From a virus (taxonomy: Duplodnaviria; Heunggongvirae; Uroviricota; Caudoviricetes): a DNA stretch of 7,437 bases. Shown piece by piece: positions 1 through 6,912 of the stretch; position 1 is the first letter of the stretch, and every line of letters starts with the position of its first letter. The stretch is from IMG/VR virus record IMGVR_UViG_2585428013_000002; one strand, given 5' to 3'. Made by a program: the position numbers and the translations under genes. The notes under the pieces are model-generated. The model made no database searches. It was not told the DNA's origin and worked only from the letters and a program-made list of their open reading frames with translations.

Positions 1-321
1 TACAGTGGCACGGTGGTTAACCGTCCGACGTTTTTTGCTTTTGCAAAAGGCGCGGGTGTGATGGGGGAAGCTGGACCTGAAGCCATTCTGCCACTGCGTC
101 GTGGTGCTGACGGTAAGCTGGGGGTTGTGGCGGACATTGGTGGTTCAGGTATGGCGATGTTTGCCCCGCAGTACAACATCGAGATCAATAACGATGGCAC
201 GAACGGGCAGATAGGTCCGGCTGCCCTGAAGGTGGTTTATGACCTTGGGAAAAAAGCGGCAGCGGACTTTATGCAACAGCAGGCCCGTGATGGTGGTCGG
301 TTAAGTGGAGCATATCGGTAA
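1..321 (+). CDS. H: Tail tape measure protein, C-terminal end (5'-partial; reading frame 1 is open from the window edge to TAA at 319-321)
   Basis: Frame-1 ORF open from base 1; lies immediately upstream of M-L-K-I-J in the lambda order; stop overlaps the M start (TAATG). Identity inferred from synteny, not from a search. Confidence 0.75.
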   Translation, partial: YSGTVVNRPTFFAFAKGAGVMGEAGPEAILPLRRGADGKLGVVADIGGSGMAMFAPQYNIEINNDGTNGQIGPAALKVVYDLGKKAAADFMQQQARDGGRLSGAYR

Positions 322-650
322 TGGAGACGTTTCACTGGAAAGTGCGCCCGGATATGAATGTGGTATCAGAGCCGAAAGTGGTGACAGTGAAGCTGGGCGA
401 TGGTTATGAACAGCGTCGTGCGGCGGGACTGAATAACCAGTTGTCGACTTACAGCGTGACGATACGTGTTCGTAAATGTGAACACCCATCTTTAAAAGCC
501 TTTCTGGAACGGCACGGTGGCGTCCGCGCATTTCAGTGGACGCCACCTTATGACTGGAAGCCGATCAGGGTGGTTTGTCGTAAATGGTCGGCAAGCGTGG
601 GGGCGTTGTGGGTAACCATAACGGCAGATTTTGAACAGGTCGTGGCATAG
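321..650 (+). CDS. M: Tail tip assembly protein M (minor tail protein), 109 aa
   Basis: 109-aa ORF, same length as lambda gpM; sequence METFHWKVRPDMN... matches my recollection of lambda M; ATG overlaps the H stop by 1 nt; position between H and L. Confidence 0.9.
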   Translation: METFHWKVRPDMNVVSEPKVVTVKLGDGYEQRRAAGLNNQLSTYSVTIRVRKCEHPSLKAFLERHGGVRAFQWTPPYDWKPIRVVCRKWSASVGALWVTITADFEQVVA

Positions 651-659
651 GAGGCTCTG

Positions 660-1358
660 ATGCAGGATATTCCACAGGAAACACATCATGAGACGACACG
701 CCTCACTCAGTCAGCCCAGGTGGTGCTCTGGGAAATCGATCTGACAGAGGTCGGTGGAGAACGTTATTTTTTCTGTAATGAGCAGAACGAAAAAGGTGAG
801 CCGGTCACCTGGCAGGGGCGACAGTATCAGGCATACCCCATTCAGGGGACGGGATTTGAACTGAACGGCAAGGGCAGTGCTGCCCGTCCGACACTGACGG
901 TTTCTAACCTGCACGGAATGGTCACCGGGATGGCGGAAGACCTGCAGAGTCTGGTCGGAGGAACGGTGGTCAGGCGTAAGGTTTACGCCCGTTTTCTGGA
1001 TGCGGTGAACTTCGTCAACGGAAACAGCGACGCCGATCCGGAGCAGGAGGTGATCAGCCGCTGGCGCATCGAGCAGTGCAGCGAACTGAGCGCGGTCAGT
1101 GCCTCCTTTGTACTGTCCACACCGACGGAAACGGACGGTGCTGTTTTTCCGGGGCGCATCATGCTGGCCAACACCTGCACCTGGACCTATCGCGGCGATG
1201 AGTGCGGTTATCACGGTCCGGCTGTCGCGGATGAATATGACCAGCCGACGTCCGATATCACGAAGGATAAATGCAGCAAATGCCTGAGTGGCTGTAAGTT
1301 TCGCAATAACGTCGGCAACTTTGGCGGCTTCCTTTCCATTAACAAACTTTCGCAGTAA
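660..1358 (+). CDS. L: Tail tip protein L (minor tail protein), 232 aa, with C-terminal cysteine cluster
   Basis: 232 aa, same as lambda gpL; AGGAGG Shine-Dalgarno at 651-656 about 4 nt before the ATG; four C-terminal cysteines (DEC...KCSKCLSGC) as in the gpL family; synteny. Confidence 0.92.
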   Translation: MQDIPQETHHETTRLTQSAQVVLWEIDLTEVGGERYFFCNEQNEKGEPVTWQGRQYQAYPIQGTGFELNGKGSAARPTLTVSNLHGMVTGMAEDLQSLVGGTVVRRKVYARFLDAVNFVNGNSDADPEQEVISRWRIEQCSELSAVSASFVLSTPTETDGAVFPGRIMLANTCTWTYRGDECGYHGPAVADEYDQPTSDITKDKCSKCLSGCKFRNNVGNFGGFLSINKLSQ

Positions 1359-1363
1359 ATCCC

Positions 1364-2107
1364 ATGACACAGACAGAATCAGCGATTCTGGCGCACGCCC
1401 GGCGATGTGCGCCAGCGGAGTCGTGCGGCTTCGTGGTGAGAACGCCGGAAGGGGAAAGATATTTTCCCTGCGTGAATATCTCCGGTGAGCCGGAGGAGTA
1501 TTTCCGGATGTCGCCGGAGGACTGGCTGCGGGCAGAGACGCAGGGTGAGATTGTGGCGCTGGTCCACAGCCACCCCGGTGGTCTGCCCTGGCTGAGTGAG
1601 GCCGACCGGCGGCTGCAGGTGCAGAGTGATTTGCCGTGGTGGCTGGTCTGCCGGGGTGAGATTCATAAATTCCGCTGTGTGCCGCATCTTACCGGGCGGC
1701 GCTTTGAGCACGGGGTGACGGACTGTTACACGCTGTTCCGGGATGCTTACCATCTGGCGGGGATTGAGATGCCGGATTTTCATCGCGAGGATGACTGGTG
1801 GCGTCACGGTCAGAATCTCTATCTGGATAATCTGGAGGCCACAGGGCTGTATCAGGTGCCGTTGTCAGCGGCGCAGCCGGGCGATGTGCTGCTGTGCTGT
1901 TTTGGTTCATCGGTGCCGAATCATGCCGCCATTTACTGCGGCGACGGCGAGCTGCTGCACCATATTCCTGAACAACTGAGCAAACGAGAGAGGTATACCG
2001 ACAAATGGCAGCGACGCACACACTCCCTCTGGCGTCACCGGGCATGGCACGCATCTGCCTTTACGGGGATTTACAACGATTTGGCCGCCGCATCGACCTT
2101 CGTGTGA
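1364..2107 (+). CDS. K: Tail tip assembly protein K: N-terminal JAB/MPN (JAMM) metallopeptidase-like domain + C-terminal NlpC/P60 cysteine peptidase-like domain (247 aa as called; alternative start at 1509 gives 199 aa)
   Basis: JAMM motif HSHPGGLPWLSEAD (H-x-H-x7-S-x2-D) at 1565-1606; NlpC/P60-like Cys (GVTDCYTLF) and downstream His residues (NHAAIY...LLHH); 3' end overlaps I by 103 nt as in lambda. The start is uncertain: 1364 has no obvious SD, 1509 has GGAGG about 13 nt upstream. Confidence 0.88.
   Translation: MTQTESAILAHARRCAPAESCGFVVRTPEGERYFPCVNISGEPEEYFRMSPEDWLRAETQGEIVALVHSHPGGLPWLSEADRRLQVQSDLPWWLVCRGEIHKFRCVPHLTGRRFEHGVTDCYTLFRDAYHLAGIEMPDFHREDDWWRHGQNLYLDNLEATGLYQVPLSAAQPGDVLLCCFGSSVPNHAAIYCGDGELLHHIPEQLSKRERYTDKWQRRTHSLWRHRAWHASAFTGIYNDLAAASTFV
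1565..1606 (+). other. JAMM/MPN+ zinc-binding motif (HxHx7Sx2D) inside K
   Basis: Codons cac-agc-cac ... agt-gag-gcc-gac read directly in the K frame. Confidence 0.8.
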
Positions 2108-2712: not shown

Positions 2713-5700
2713 ATGGGTAAAGGCAGCAGTAAGGGGCATACCCCGCGCGAAGCGAAGGACAACCTGAAGTCCACGCAGTTGCTGAGTGTGATCGATGCCA
2801 TCAGCGAAGGGCCGGTTGAAGGTCCGGTGGATGGATTAAAAAGCGTGCTGCTGAACAGTACGCCGGTGCTGGACACTGAGGGGAATACCAACATATCCGG
2901 TGTCACGGTGGTGTTCCGGGCAGGTGAGCAGGAGCAGACTCCGCCGGAGGGGTTTGAATCCTCCGGTTCCGAGACGGTGCTCGGTACAGAAGTGAAATAT
3001 GACACGCCGATCACCCGGACCATCACGTCGGCAAACATCGACCGTCTGCGCTTTACCTTCGGTGTGCAGGCACTGGTGGAAACCACCTCAAAGGGGGACA
3101 GGAATCCGTCGGAAGTCCGCCTGCTGGTTCAGATACAGCGTAACGGTGGCTGGGTGACGGAAAAAGACATCACCATTAAGGGCAAAACCACCTCGCAGTA
3201 TCTGGCATCGGTGGTGGTGGGTAACCTGCCGCCGCGCCCGTTCAATATCCGGATGCGCAGGATGACGCCGGACAGCACCACAGACCAGCTGCAGAACAAA
3301 ACGCTCTGGTCGTCATACACCGAAATCATCGATGTGAAACAGTGCTACCCGAACACGGCACTGGTCGGCGTACAGGTGGACTCGGAGCAGTTCGGCAGCC
3401 AGCAGGTGAGCCGTAATTATCATCTGCGCGGGCGCATTCTGCAGGTGCCGTCGAACTATAACCCGCAGACGCGGCAATACAGCGGTATCTGGGACGGAAC
3501 GTTTAAGCCAGCATACAGCAACAACATGGCCTGGTGTCTGTGGGATATGCTGACCCATCCGCGCTACGGCATGGGGAAACGTCTTGGTGCGGCGGATGTG
3601 GACAAATGGGCGCTGTATGTCATCGGCCAGAATTGCGACCAGTCGGTGCCGGACGGCTTTGGCGGCACGGAGCCGCGCATCACCTGTAATGCGTACCTGA
3701 CCACACAGCGCAAGGCGTGGGATGTGCTCAGTGATTTCTGCTCGGCGATGCGCTGTATGCCGGTATGGAACGGGCAGACGCTGACGTTCGTGCAGGACCG
3801 ACCATCGGATAAGGTGTGGACCTATAACCGCAGTAATGTGGTGATGCCGGATGATGGCGCGCCGTTCCGCTACAGCTTCAGCGCCCTGAAAGACCGCCAT
3901 AATGCCGTTGAGGTGAACTGGACTGACCCGAACAACGGCTGGGAAACGGCAACAGAGCTTGTGGAGGACACGCAGGCCATTGCCCGTTACGGTCGTAACG
4001 TCACGAAGATGGATGCCTTTGGCTGTACCAGCCGGGGGCAGGCACACCGCGCCGGGCTGTGGCTGATTAAAACGGAGCTGCTGGAAACGCAGACCGTGGA
4101 TTTCAGCGTGGGCGCCGAAGGGCTTCGCCATGTACCGGGCGATGTCATTGAAATCTGCGATGATGACTATGCGGGTATCAGCACCGGCGGGCGCGTGCTG
4201 GCGGTGAACAGCCAGACCCGGACGCTGACGCTCGACCGTGAAATCACGCTGCCATCCTCCGGCACCACGCTGATAAGCCTGGTTGACGGGAGTGGCAATC
4301 CGGTCAGCGTGGAGGTTCAGTCCGTCACCGACGGCGTGAAGGTGAAAGTGAGCCGTGTTCCTGACGGCGTTGCTGAATACAGCGTATGGGGGCTGAAGCT
4401 GCCGACGCTGCGCCAGCGCCTGTTCCGCTGCGTGAGTATCCGTGAGAACGACGACGGCACGTATGCCATCACCGCCGTGCAGCATGTACCGGAGAAAGAG
4501 GCCATCGTGGATAACGGGGCGCACTTTGACGGCGACCAGAGCGGCACGGTGAATGGTGTCACGCCGCCAGCAGTGCAGCACCTGACCGCCGAAGTCACCG
4601 CAGACAGCGGGGAATATCAGGTGCTGGCGCGCTGGGACACACCGAAGGTGGTGAAGGGCGTGAGCTTCCTGCTTCGCCTGACCGTGACAGCGGATGACGG
4701 CAGTGAGCGGCTGGTCAGCACAGCCCGGACGACGGAAACCACATACCGCTTCACACAACTGGCGCTGGGGAACTACAGGCTGACAGTCCGGGCAGTAAAT
4801 GCGTGGGGACAGCAGGGCGATCCGGCATCGGTATCGTTCCGGATTGCCGCACCGGCAGCGCCGTCGCGGATTGAGCTGACGCCGGGCTATTTTCAGATAA
4901 CCGCCACGCCGCATCTTGCGGTTTATGATCCGACGGTACAGTTTGAGTTCTGGTTCTCGGAAAAGCGGATTGCGGATATCAGGCAGGTTGAAACCACAGC
5001 ACGCTATCTTGGCACGGCGCTGTACTGGATAGCCGCCAGTATCAATATCAAACCGGGCCATGATTATTATTTTTACGTTCGCAGTGTGAACACCGTTGGC
5101 AAATCGGCATTCGTGGAGGCTGTCGGTCAGCCGAGTGATGACGCATCCGGCTATCTGGATTTTTTCAAAGGAGAGATAGGGAAAACACACCTGGCTCAGG
5201 AGTTGTGGACGCAGATTGATAACGGTCAGCTTGCGCCTGACCTGGCTGAAATCAGGACATCCATTACGGGTGTCAGCAATGAAATCACGCAGACCGTCAA
5301 TAAGAAACTGGAAGACCAGAGTGCAGCGATCCAGCAGATACAGAAGGTTCAGGTTGATACAAATAATAACCTGAACAGCATGTGGGCTGTGAAGCTGCAG
5401 CAGATGCAGGACGGGCGCCTTTATATCGCGGGTATTGGTGCCGGTATTGAGAACACCCCTGACGGCATGCAGAGTCAGGTGCTGCTGGCGGCGGACAGGA
5501 TTGCGATGGTTAATCCTGCGAATGGCAACACAAAGCCGATGTTTGTTGGTCAGGGCGATCAGATATTCATGAACGAAGTGTTCCTGAAATATCTGACGGC
5601 TCCCACCATTACCAGCGGCGGTAATCCTCCGGCATTTTCCCTGACACCGGACGGGCGGCTGACGGCGAAAAATGCCGATATCAGCGGTAACGTGAATGCG

Positions 5701-6192
5701 AACTCCGGGACGCTCAACAACGTCACGATTAACGAGAACTGCCGGGTTCTGGGAAAACTGTCCGCGAACCAGATTGAAGGCGATCTCGTTAAAACAGTGG
5801 GCAAAGCTTTCCCCCGGGACTCCCGTGCACCGGAACGGTGGCCATCAGGGACCATTACCGTCAGGATTTATGACGATCAGCCGTTTGACCGGCAGATTGT
5901 TATTCCGGCGGTGGCATTCAGCGGCGCTAAACATGAGAGAGAGCATACTGATATTTACTCCTCATGCCGTCTGATAGTGCGGAAAAACGGTGCTGAAATT
6001 TATAACCGTACCGCGCTGGATAATACGCTGATTTACAGTGGCGTTATTGATATGCCTGCCGGTCACGGTCACATGACGCTGGAGTTTTCGGTGTCAGCAT
6101 GGCTGGTAAATGACTGGTATCCCACAGCAAGTATCAGCGATTTGCTGGTTGTGGTGATGAAGAAAGCCACCGCAGGCATCAGTATCAGCTGA
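2713..6192 (+). CDS. J: Tip attachment protein J / central tail fibre (host-specificity protein), 1159 aa
   Basis: 1159-aa ORF (lambda J is 1132 aa); N-terminus [34 protein letters not shown]... matches my recollection of lambda J; GGAG SD before the ATG; internal fibronectin-III-like repeats; position after I and before lom. Confidence 0.95.
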
Positions 6193-6211
6193 ATTTTATA
6201 ACCCCAATACG

Positions 6212-6235
6212 GGCGTCAGAAATGACGCCTTTTTT
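6212..6235 (+). terminator. Rho-independent terminator after J (7-bp stem ggcgtca/tgacgcc, GAAA loop, T6 run)
   Basis: Inverted repeat 6212-6218 / 6223-6229 with tetraloop gaaa, followed by tttttt at 6230-6235; begins 20 nt after the J stop. Confidence 0.75.
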
Positions 6236-6259
6236 ATTGCAGAAAAGCGAGAGGTAATT

Positions 6260-6859
6260 ATGCGTAAATTATGTGCTGTTATTCTGTCCGCAGTAGTCTG
6301 GCTGGTTGCCGCTGGTACGCCAGCAAGCGCAGCAGAGCATCAGTCCACACTAAGCGCCGGGTATCTTCAGACCCATACTGATATGCCAGGCAGCGATGAT
6401 CTGAACGGGATTAACGTGAAATACCGTTATGAGTTTACGGACACGCTGGGGCTGGTGACGTCATTCAGTTATGCCAATGCCAAAGATGAGCAAAAAACGC
6501 ATTACAGCGATACCCGCTGGCATGAAGATTCCGTGCGTAACCGCTGGTTCAGCGTGATGGCGGGGCCGTCTGTGCGCGTGAATGAATGGTTCAGCGCGTA
6601 TGCGATGGCGGGTATGGCTTACAGCCGTGTGTCGACCTTCTCCGGGGATTATCTCCGCGTAACTGACAACAAGGGGAAAACGCACGATGTGCTGACCGGA
6701 AGTGATGACGGTCGCCACAGCAACACGTCTCTGGCGTGGGGGGCTGGCGTGCAGTTTAACCCGACCGAATCCGTGGCCATTGACCTTGCTTATGAAGGTT
6801 CCGGCAGTGGTGACTGGCGCACTGACGGTTTCATCGTGGGTGTCGGTTATAAATTCTGA
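6260..6859 (+). CDS. lom: Lom outer membrane protein (Ail/Lom/PagC/Rck/OmpX family 8-stranded beta-barrel), 199 aa with N-terminal signal peptide
   Basis: Signal-peptide-like N-terminus MRKLCAVILSAVVWLVAAGTPASA/AEH; alternating beta-strand pattern; C-terminal ...GVGYKF with terminal Phe typical of OMP beta-barrels; matches my recollection of lambda Lom; GAGAGG SD about 6 nt before the ATG; located between J and stf as in lambda. Confidence 0.93.
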   Translation: MRKLCAVILSAVVWLVAAGTPASAAEHQSTLSAGYLQTHTDMPGSDDLNGINVKYRYEFTDTLGLVTSFSYANAKDEQKTHYSDTRWHEDSVRNRWFSVMAGPSVRVNEWFSAYAMAGMAYSRVSTFSGDYLRVTDNKGKTHDVLTGSDDGRHSNTSLAWGAGVQFNPTESVAIDLAYEGSGSGDWRTDGFIVGVGYKF

Positions 6860-6885
6860 TTAGCCAGGTAACACAGTGTTATGAC

Positions 6886-6912
6886 AGCCCGCCGGTTCAG
6901 GCGGGCTTTTTT
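6886..6912 (+). terminator. Rho-independent terminator after lom (8-bp stem agcccgcc/ggcgggct, 6-nt loop, T6 run)
   Basis: Inverted repeat 6886-6893 / 6900-6907, then tttttt at 6907-6912, 27 nt after the lom stop. Confidence 0.8.

Follow-up and report, generated by a model that had tools for sequence, protein, structure and literature searches.

The J gene of this viral DNA raises the question of how its 3' end was put together and which host receptor the encoded tail tip addresses. The initial annotation had taken the region from 5160 to 6192 as AT-richer than the rest of J, and had regarded it as one possibly swapped host-range module. The window (the whole 7,437-nt stretch analysed here) contains a lambdoid tail-tip cluster comprising M, L, K, I, J, lom, and the start of stf, and the ORF map and collinear matches to annotated phages gave the gene order M-L-K-I-J-lom-stf of a lambda-type J. 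The J protein consists of 1159 residues compared with 1132 in lambda J, which confirms the excess of 27 residues reported earlier. Six Pfam families were matched in J, all above the curated cut-offs: FNIII-A_GpJ, Phage-tail_3, Ig_J (aa 610–714), Ig_J_second (aa 716–818), Phage_Tail_Tip (aa 872–1000), and Ig_GpJ_C (aa 1029–1159). The protein carries the full J domain set, consisting of FNIII-A, the hub, two Ig/FNIII domains, the tail-tip fibre prism, and the C-terminal receptor-binding domain (RBD). The structural part, aa 1–805, is 96–100% identical to lambda J at the amino acid level. Gene position, domain architecture, and hub are the same as in lambda J (PDB 8iyk, 8xcj, and others), and the same hub is found in the J proteins of phage 434 (lambda h434), Ayreon, mEp460, and cdtI. 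The features of the locus are collected in Table 1.

Table 1. Features of gene J and its downstream flank, in window coordinates
Feature	Position	Strand	Basis or remark
Gene J (tip attachment protein / central tail fibre), 1159 aa	2713..6192	+	ORF and translation, Pfam, synteny
GC change-point support interval	4857..5041	+	Family-wide feature; best estimate 4888
Module A: alpha-helical shaft (AHS), 'long' allele, and top of the beta-prism	5121..5557	+	Mismatch clustering
Conserved central-straight-fibre (beta-prism) segment between the modules	5558..5720	+	Mismatch maps, Pfam Phage_Tail_Tip
Module B: variable RBD core (C-terminal, Ig-like), 1A2 / O157-prophage class	5721..6153	+	
Conserved last J strand and stop codon; right-hand homology arm of the RBD cassette	6154..6192	+	
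Hairpin and T-run between J and lom, intrinsic-terminator-like	6211..6238	+	
lom (Ail/Lom outer-membrane protein), downstream of the cassette	6260..6859	+	ORF, annotation of homologous loci

The mosaic structure of J was determined by 100-nt identity profiles, residue-level alignment, per-domain identities, and mismatch maps. Per-domain identities were obtained for 10 other J proteins taken from phage loci; 2G7b, 1H12, and the ev-series phages in this comparison are possibly laboratory recombinants. Comparison with lambda revealed that identity collapses at about 5121–5160 and stays at background (~50%) between about 5721 and the stop codon. The differences from lambda, 2G7b, and h434 are concentrated between 5121 and 5557 (Module A), a stretch that aligns to lambda residues ~806–920 and spans the lambda AHS, which occupies residues 809–861 (Ge et al. 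2024, PMC11101478). The following beta-prism segment is conserved, with no differences from 2G7b, one to five from Ayreon, and 80–88% identity to lambda, and it is likely a substrate for homologous recombination. In the per-domain comparison, the beta-prism is 87% identical to that of lambda J. Divergence from Ayreon begins at 5721 and similarity is back at about 6154, which sets the limits of Module B. In blastn, Ayreon, mEp460, and h434 become similar to the window again at 6033–6175 and remain so through lom, and the C-terminal motif ...VVMKKxxxGISI. is common to the RBD classes. At the 3' end, the top database matches are to O157 prophages, VT1-Sakai, and PPompW, while Ayreon, cdtI, and mEp460 match best elsewhere in the window.

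Analysis of the Module B alleles revealed discrete classes with no continuum between them. At the amino acid level, Module B is 100% identical to PhiR55_1, 97–98% to VT1-Sakai, 2G7b, and Stx2a_JNE, 61–64% to the A8 class, 43–44% to lambda, and 40–41% to the class of 434, Ayreon, mEp460, and cdtI, whose RBDs are 94–95% identical among themselves. The nearest experimentally studied relative is the chimera gpJ-1A2 (Nature 2024, PMC11338833), in which the J C-terminus comes from O157 prophages, e.g., VT1-Sakai (Sp15) and PPompW. The 1A2 C-terminus recovered from the supplement is the VT1-Sakai allele at all residues recovered in frame. The lambda-to-donor fusion of 1A2 (ADISG|N) corresponds to aa 992/993 of the window protein, a position within the conserved prism shortly before Module B begins. 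Over the swapped segment (~aa 993–1159), the window is 97.5–98.1% identical by tblastn, with at least 95% taken to define the 1A2 class, and only four differences from VT1-Sakai/1A2 were found in about 167 residues (I1052V, R1076K, D1134N, and S1157T, with the window residue given first). Outside the RBD, the molecules differ: 1A2 has the short shaft of lambda whereas the window has the long one, and the J of VT1-Sakai itself is frameshifted with a diverged hub, unlike that of the window. 1A2-type alleles differ from one another chiefly at the third position of J codons, indicating purifying selection. This exact RBD tip, characterised before, is widespread among E. coli prophages: of 5426 complete E. 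coli genomes, 3384 (62%) contain its core, and a homologue search with the last 400 residues of J was saturated by 99–100% identical E. coli entries.

Among solved structures, the closest is A8 gpJ (PDB 9wca; with OmpC, 9wcb), whose Ig-like RBD is homologous end to end. When the RBD was compared with PDB on its own, 9wca ranked first (E 2.4e-54), with lambda J behind (E 1e-33). The window and A8 RBDs are only 61% identical, below the ~80% or more taken for the A8 class, and A8 sides with the 1H12 / Stx1_14040 class (78–82%, with 1H12 at 82%). Judged by sequence, the window RBD is thus a homologue of A8, yet of a distinct class. Against lambda J 975–1132, which carries loops L1–L4, the identity of 43–44% is accompanied by an indel in the 1107 loop. 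Single-sequence AlphaFold2 prediction of aa 990–1159 gave a pLDDT of 46.8, too low for a fold search, and the predicted RBD fold comes from homology to PDB 9wca and 8xcj only.

Module A accounts for the length difference of J, being a net 28 residues longer than its lambda counterpart. It is 32% identical to lambda and 98–99% identical to Ayreon, PhiR55_1, and 1H12 at the protein level. It lies at the AHS position between FNIII-2 and the beta-prism, with flanks that align unambiguously, and aa 819–871 are outside any Pfam match. The coiled-coil-like 20-residue peptide pointed out in the initial annotation is located at aa 864–883. A heptad test over aa 836–893 gave weak support, with 27 of 2000 shuffles reaching the observed power at period 3.5; the hydrophobic excess at a/d positions of the same segment was not significant (259 of 2000 shuffles), and periodicity over the whole segment aa 809–893 gave no signal. 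The net addition of 28 residues equals exactly four heptads.

The shaft and RBD modules assort independently among phages. The 1A2-type RBD is paired with the long shaft in the window, PhiR55_1, and VT1-Sakai, with the short shaft in 2G7b, and with a third allele in Stx2a_JNE; the long shaft is paired with the 1A2-type RBD in the window, with the 434-type in Ayreon, and with the A8-type in 1H12. The proposal of a swapped host-range module in the 3' part of J thus held in that this part is mosaic and carries a host-range module unlike that of lambda, but 5160–6192 is not a single module: it comprises two independently assorting cassettes with a conserved segment between them. The proposal was correct in spirit; the mosaicism of the J 3' end is ordinary and already known. 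The J specificity region (lambda residues 960–1132) was described in 2018 as an independently recombining module among 1207 homologs (PMC6646904), and with modular J exchange on record since then, the finding has limited weight as a discovery. The length polymorphism of the shaft is one loose end of some value. It is possible, if rather doubtful, that the shaft acts as a further functional cassette, exchanged on its own, rather than as a passive spacer. Its three alleles (long, short, and third) would then adjust either the reach of the tip across O-antigen or capsule or the energetics of the tail-opening helix-to-sheet remodelling set off by the receptor, and host range or ejection kinetics would be set by the combination of shaft and RBD.

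The window RBD most likely binds the trimeric porin OmpC instead of LamB, since it is four residues away from the characterised gpJ-1A2 / VT1-Sakai allele. Both chimeras, A8 and 1A2, transfer DNA to cells lacking lamB by way of OmpC (Brodel et al. 2024, PMC11338833), and 1A2 was found experimentally to be OmpC-dependent and LamB-independent. Delivery by 1A2 was 5% on wild-type LamB+ MG1655 and ~98% on cells with EDL933 OmpC (PMC11338833). A8 accepts K-12 OmpC, whereas 1A2 does not; a 2025 STEC preprint reports that 1A2 recognises O157 OmpC. The structure 9wcb contains A8 gpJ713 with the OmpC trimer, and phage 434 also uses OmpC, according to a passage of PMC11101478 citing earlier literature. 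From 1A2, we infer both OmpC use and the accepted OmpC variants for the allele with the four substitutions. At the specificity hotspots, P1040 (lambda 1012) is the same residue in the window and 1A2, and R1076K (lambda 1048) and D1134N (lambda D1107) differ conservatively. The choice among OmpC variants could depend on D, N, or G at 1134 and on R or K at 1076. Two of the four differences thus lie at lambda specificity hotspots, and the OmpC variant range, or even the receptor, could differ from that of 1A2.

That the domain uses neither OmpC nor LamB but, for example, OmpF or another porin appears improbable. It would be consistent with the alignment of R1076 and D1134 to lambda residues 1048 and 1107, which are implicated in the switch of lambda to OmpF (1107 being critical and the 1048 region recurrently mutated; PMC6646904), and with the polymorphism of residue 1134 (D, N, or G) between alleles that are nearly identical elsewhere. 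However, all the changes are conservative (R/K, D/N, I/V, and S/T), and the gain of OmpF by lambda needs at least four mutations, including D-to-K (PMC6646904). The more distant A8 class, at 61% identity, still binds OmpC, which suggests that OmpC use is robust across the clade. Still less credible, to the point of being very unlikely, is that the C-terminal domain has retained LamB binding and that its sequence has drifted neutrally inside a family of LamB binders. Homology to the lambda RBD does extend over the full length and both belong to the Pfam family Ig_GpJ_C, but the low identity to lambda and the separation of the alleles into discrete classes argue against drift. In addition, 1A2 fails on LamB+ K-12 with native OmpC (the 5% figure, obtained at an MOI of 50) and delivers to lamB/ompC double-deletion cells once these are supplied with EDL933 OmpC (PMC11338833). 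For annotation, OmpC, not LamB, is thus the predicted irreversible receptor of this phage or prophage, and in lambda vectors engineered for delivery, a 4-residue variant of the RBD is already used to target OmpC. PhiR55_1, with an RBD identical to that of the window, was propagated on E. coli C; the SNIPE preprint names PhiR55.1 and gives no receptor for that phage. A preprint that predicts receptors from phage genomes covers the GpJ of Drexlerviridae and expressly leaves out the lambda C-terminal domain, so that it does not inform the present case.

With OmpC as the preferred receptor, the J protein is very probably a lambda-like hub carrying a distal fibre of recombined, interchangeable cassettes that include an OmpC-type RBD of the O157 class. 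In the proposed build, aa 1–805, comprising the hub domains and the two Ig/FNIII domains, are essentially lambda J, followed by the 'long' allele of a putative trimeric alpha-helical shaft (aa ~804–949), the conserved beta-prism (aa ~950–1002), and an Ig-like RBD of the E. coli O157 prophage class (aa ~1003–1159). The distal fibre would have been put together by homologous recombination of cassettes. The bottom loops of the RBD may insert into the extracellular face of OmpC, in a manner similar to the lambda domain with LamB and the A8 domain with OmpC. In lambda, the shaft is described in the literature to unfold and refold on receptor binding, coupling binding to tail opening.

The drop in GC content within J, noted by eye in the initial annotation, is real, but its position is not the claimed 5160–5300, which lies outside the support interval (Table 1). 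The best change-point (J nt 2175) separates a GC of 0.604 on the left from 0.516 on the right, with a log-likelihood ratio of 12.8 compared with a maximum of 8.3 among 300 codon shuffles. The drop occurs at all codon positions and is strongest at the third (GC3 from 0.743 to 0.594), and the AT-rich runs quoted as examples were found at 5356–5379 and 5999–6038. Rather than marking the start of the receptor-binding module, the change-point falls at the boundary of the two Ig/FNIII domains (Ig_J_second starts at aa 716, nt 4858), about 270 nt upstream of 5160, and coincides with a VT1-Sakai lineage junction at 4836–4860. The same change-point at J nt 2175 is present in the J genes of lambda, Ayreon, PhiR55_1, and mEp460, and VT1-Sakai J has it at nt 2168, indicating that the compositional shift is a property of the whole J family and no marker of a phage-specific swap. 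The GC drop is an older feature common to all J genes compared, and GC content is therefore unsuitable as a marker of recent J swaps. Recent horizontal gain of the entire 3' third by this phage can be dismissed as having a negligible probability: the drop is statistically real and extends to synonymous positions, but the step shared with the other J genes already refutes such a gain, the window is 91–100% identical to lambda across the change-point (4813 to 5112), and the true breakpoints relative to lambda lie 230–830 nt downstream of it. Instead of a recent gain, we infer that the step reflects a distal fibre, from the second FNIII domain to the tip, that circulates among lambdoid prophages with different hubs and has a composition near the E. 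coli average.

Two internal ORFs within J, 5559–5855 on the minus strand and 5696–5974 on the plus strand in another frame, were rejected as genes; their translations are of low complexity and rich in Arg, Ser, and Pro, and the allele differences are third-position-biased in the J frame. At the site corresponding to the hairpin and T-run downstream of J in the window, a terminator is annotated in both Ayreon and mEp460.

The ORF map and matches to annotated phages indicated that the window is a lambdoid tail-tip cluster running from the end of H to the beginning of stf. It is 96.5% identical to PhiR55_1 over its full length and 98.7% identical to prophages of E. coli O2:H6 PG20180057 and strain 1290, and a related segment is present in 5005 of 5426 complete E. 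coli genomes. The mosaic architecture of J, the lambda-type tip attachment protein, was revealed by identity profiles and not by composition (see table).

Tail-tip genes, J cassettes and J protein segments of the window
Feature	Window position (nt)	Window J residues (aa)	Identity to lambda J protein
M	321-650		
L	660-1358		
K	1364-2107		
I	ends 2652		
J	2713-6192	1159 aa	
Module A	5121-5557		
Conserved segment between modules	5558-5720		
Module B, left edge (vs Ayreon)	5705-5721		
lom	6260-6859		
Hub		1-609	99%
First FNIII		610-714	100%
Second FNIII		716-805	96%
Shaft		806-893	32%
Top of prism		894-935	50%
Prism		936-1002	87%
Receptor-binding domain		1003-1159	44%

Mismatch maps at the nucleotide level resolved two separate cassettes in J. 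The differences from lambda, h434 and 2G7b are concentrated within Module A, to which the differences between the J genes of 2G7b and the window are essentially confined. Similarity to Ayreon, lost at the left edge of Module B, is back at ~6154, shortly before the J stop, and runs on through the terminator and lom. The segment between the modules does not differ from 2G7b and is 80-88% identical to lambda. The initial annotation had suggested that the AT-richer 3' third of J (5160-6192) may be one swapped host-range module. A swapped host-range module is indeed present and 5160 lies near the left boundary of Module A, but two cassettes were found, and the true receptor-binding module starts ~560 nt further downstream. 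The DNA runs and peptide quoted in that annotation, and the excess of 27 residues over lambda J, were all correct.

The decrease in GC content is likewise real, from 0.604 to 0.516 across a single maximum-likelihood change-point (log-likelihood ratio of 12.8, against a maximum of 8.3 among 300 codon-shuffled controls). GC falls at all three codon positions and most at the third (0.743 to 0.594), so the step is not merely an effect of amino-acid composition. The change-point is located at 4888 (support interval 4857-5041), ~270 nt upstream of the proposed 5160, at the boundary between Pfam Ig_J (aa 610-714) and Ig_J_second (aa 716-818), the two Ig/FNIII domains. The same change-point was recovered in the J genes of lambda, Ayreon, PhiR55_1 and mEp460 (J nt 2175) and, in VT1-Sakai, at nt 2168. 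Lambda retains 91-100% identity to the window across 4813-5112, indicating that the step is older and common to J genes. It is no evidence for a tip swap by the window phage. The VT1-Sakai J shares 51-92% identity with the window up to ~4836 and 85-100% from ~4860 to the end, with its recombination junction coinciding with the GC step. We infer that the entire distal fibre circulates among differing hub backbones and is close to the E. coli average in composition. An antisense ORF of 625 aa (3313-5190, minus strand) lies within the GC-rich part of J and has an end near the fall in GC and GC3; rather than a gene, it most likely reflects the scarcity of antisense stop codons that high GC3 brings about.

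Alignment to the solved lambda fibre assigns Module A to the predicted alpha-helical shaft (AHS, lambda residues 809-861). In lambda, the AHS is a three-helix bundle beneath the FNIII domains, which upon LamB binding flips ~180 degrees and partly turns to beta-sheet (Ge et al. 2024, PMC11101478). The shaft region of the window J is a net 28 residues, or four heptads, longer than that of lambda, and a one-residue deletion in a loop of the receptor-binding domain (RBD) brings the total difference to 27. The earlier term 'coiled-coil-like' is reasonable. The heptad periodicity test (aa 836-893, period 3.5) was only weakly positive (p ~0.014), and the a/d hydrophobic excess was not significant.

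Module B is predicted to encode the Ig-like RBD (Pfam Ig_GpJ_C), whose relatives in the phage collection fall into discrete classes. The class named after the engineered lambda J chimera 1A2 comprises ~55 records with at least 94% identity to the window RBD (PhiR55_1, 100%; VT1-Sakai, PPompW, Stx2a phages and 2G7b, 97-98%). The A8-like class (1H12, Stx1_14040) shows ~60-64% identity, the lambda class 43-44%, and the 434-type class (h434, Ayreon, mEp460 and cdtI, mutually 94-95% identical) 40-43%. The closest solved structure is 'A8 gpJ 713' (PDB 9wca, E 2.4e-54, versus 1e-33 for lambda J), and an OmpC trimer is present in its companion entry 9wcb. Read in the J frame, differences among 1A2-type alleles fall mostly at the third position of codons (for example, 10/15 against VT1-Sakai and 27/46 against Stx2a_JNE), indicating purifying selection on the RBD; this bias also argues against small overlapping ORFs being genes. 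The RBD core (433 nt) is carried by 3384 of the 5426 complete E. coli genomes, with at least 95% identity in ~2300 records, and the C-terminal 400 residues of the window J are 99-100% identical in more than 120 protein clusters among the matches listed.

Comparison of eleven J genes revealed independent assortment of shaft and RBD alleles. The 1A2-type RBD is paired with the long shaft in the window, PhiR55_1 and VT1-Sakai, with a short lambda-type shaft in 2G7b and with a third shaft allele in Stx2a_JNE. Conversely, the long shaft accompanies a 1A2-type (window), 434-type (Ayreon) or A8-type (1H12) RBD. Homology arms for the cassettes would come from the conserved prism and from the likewise conserved 3' end of J plus lom. 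In VT1-Sakai, the Stx1 prophage of O157 Sakai, a frameshift divides J (L004 3719-7191) into two ORFs, and the annotation lists the gene as truncated; its RBD is still 97.5% identical to that of the window, with mostly synonymous differences, and a defective prophage can thus be a reservoir of intact RBD cassettes. Non-lambda RBD classes on an otherwise lambda-like J were also seen in several records whose names mark them as lambda or mEp460 derivatives (2G7b, 1H12, Lambda_ev058 and mEp460_4F5); they resemble products of recombination with resident prophages, in the laboratory or in vivo.

The chimeras A8 and 1A2 bear C-termini from natural prophage J proteins, and both deliver DNA via OmpC into lamB-deleted cells; 1A2 achieves ~98% delivery with the OmpC variant of EDL933 (O157), does not work with K-12 OmpC, and reaches only 5% on wild-type LamB+ MG1655 (PMC11338833). 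The recoded 1A2 sequence was taken from the supplement of that study and aligned frame by frame because of OCR indels in the PDF text. The 170 residues that could be read in frame match the VT1-Sakai allele, barring a junction residue that derives from lambda and what is probably one OCR error, and the window differs from this allele only by I1052V, R1076K, D1134N and S1157T. Judged by this similarity, the window J probably binds OmpC. The 1A2 fusion point (…ADISG/N…, window aa 992/993) sits in the conserved prism slightly upstream of Module B, indicating that the segment beyond it alone suffices for the receptor switch. According to a 2025 preprint, 1A2 recognises an OmpC that the 121 O157 isolates of that study all share.

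In the alignment, R1076 and D1134 correspond to lambda residues 1048 and 1107. In lambda evolving OmpF use, residue 1107 is critical and mutations recur in the region of 1048 (PMC6646904), suggesting that the OmpC variants accepted by the window J may differ from those of 1A2. Residue 1134 (nt 6112-6114) varies among RBDs that are otherwise 98% identical: the window and PhiR55_1 carry D, whereas VT1-Sakai, 1A2 and Stx2a_JNE carry N and 2G7b carries G. It is a candidate site for fine-tuning the OmpC-variant range.

The J specificity region (lambda residues 960-1132) has been described as an independently recombining evolutionary module in 1207 natural homologs, including Ayreon, mEp460 and cdtI, with indel hotspots at 1012, 1048, 1077 and 1107, along with further, unexplained indel peaks in other parts of the gene (Maddamsetti et al. 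2018, PMC6646904). Those other peaks, given without coordinates, plausibly include shaft polymorphism. The swapped J tip is already known as a well-documented phenomenon, its allele very common and its receptor effectively known; given this published modularity and abundance, the finding is a correct recognition of a known phenomenon.

Downstream of J, lom together with the J-lom intergenic region (6193-6907) looks like a further mosaic cassette. Similarity to lambda returns only at ~6732, and 1H12 is without similarity at ~6238-6907 and without lom between J and stf. J and lom are each followed by a terminator-like hairpin, at 6211-6230 and 6886-6907, respectively. At the other end of the cluster, the mechanical ORF list starts I at 2005, with a ~100-nt overlap with K that the lambda reference annotation also shows. 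On sequence alone this is one of two candidate starts: in PhiR55_1, Ayreon and mEp460, I is annotated from an ATG overlapping the K stop (window 2104).
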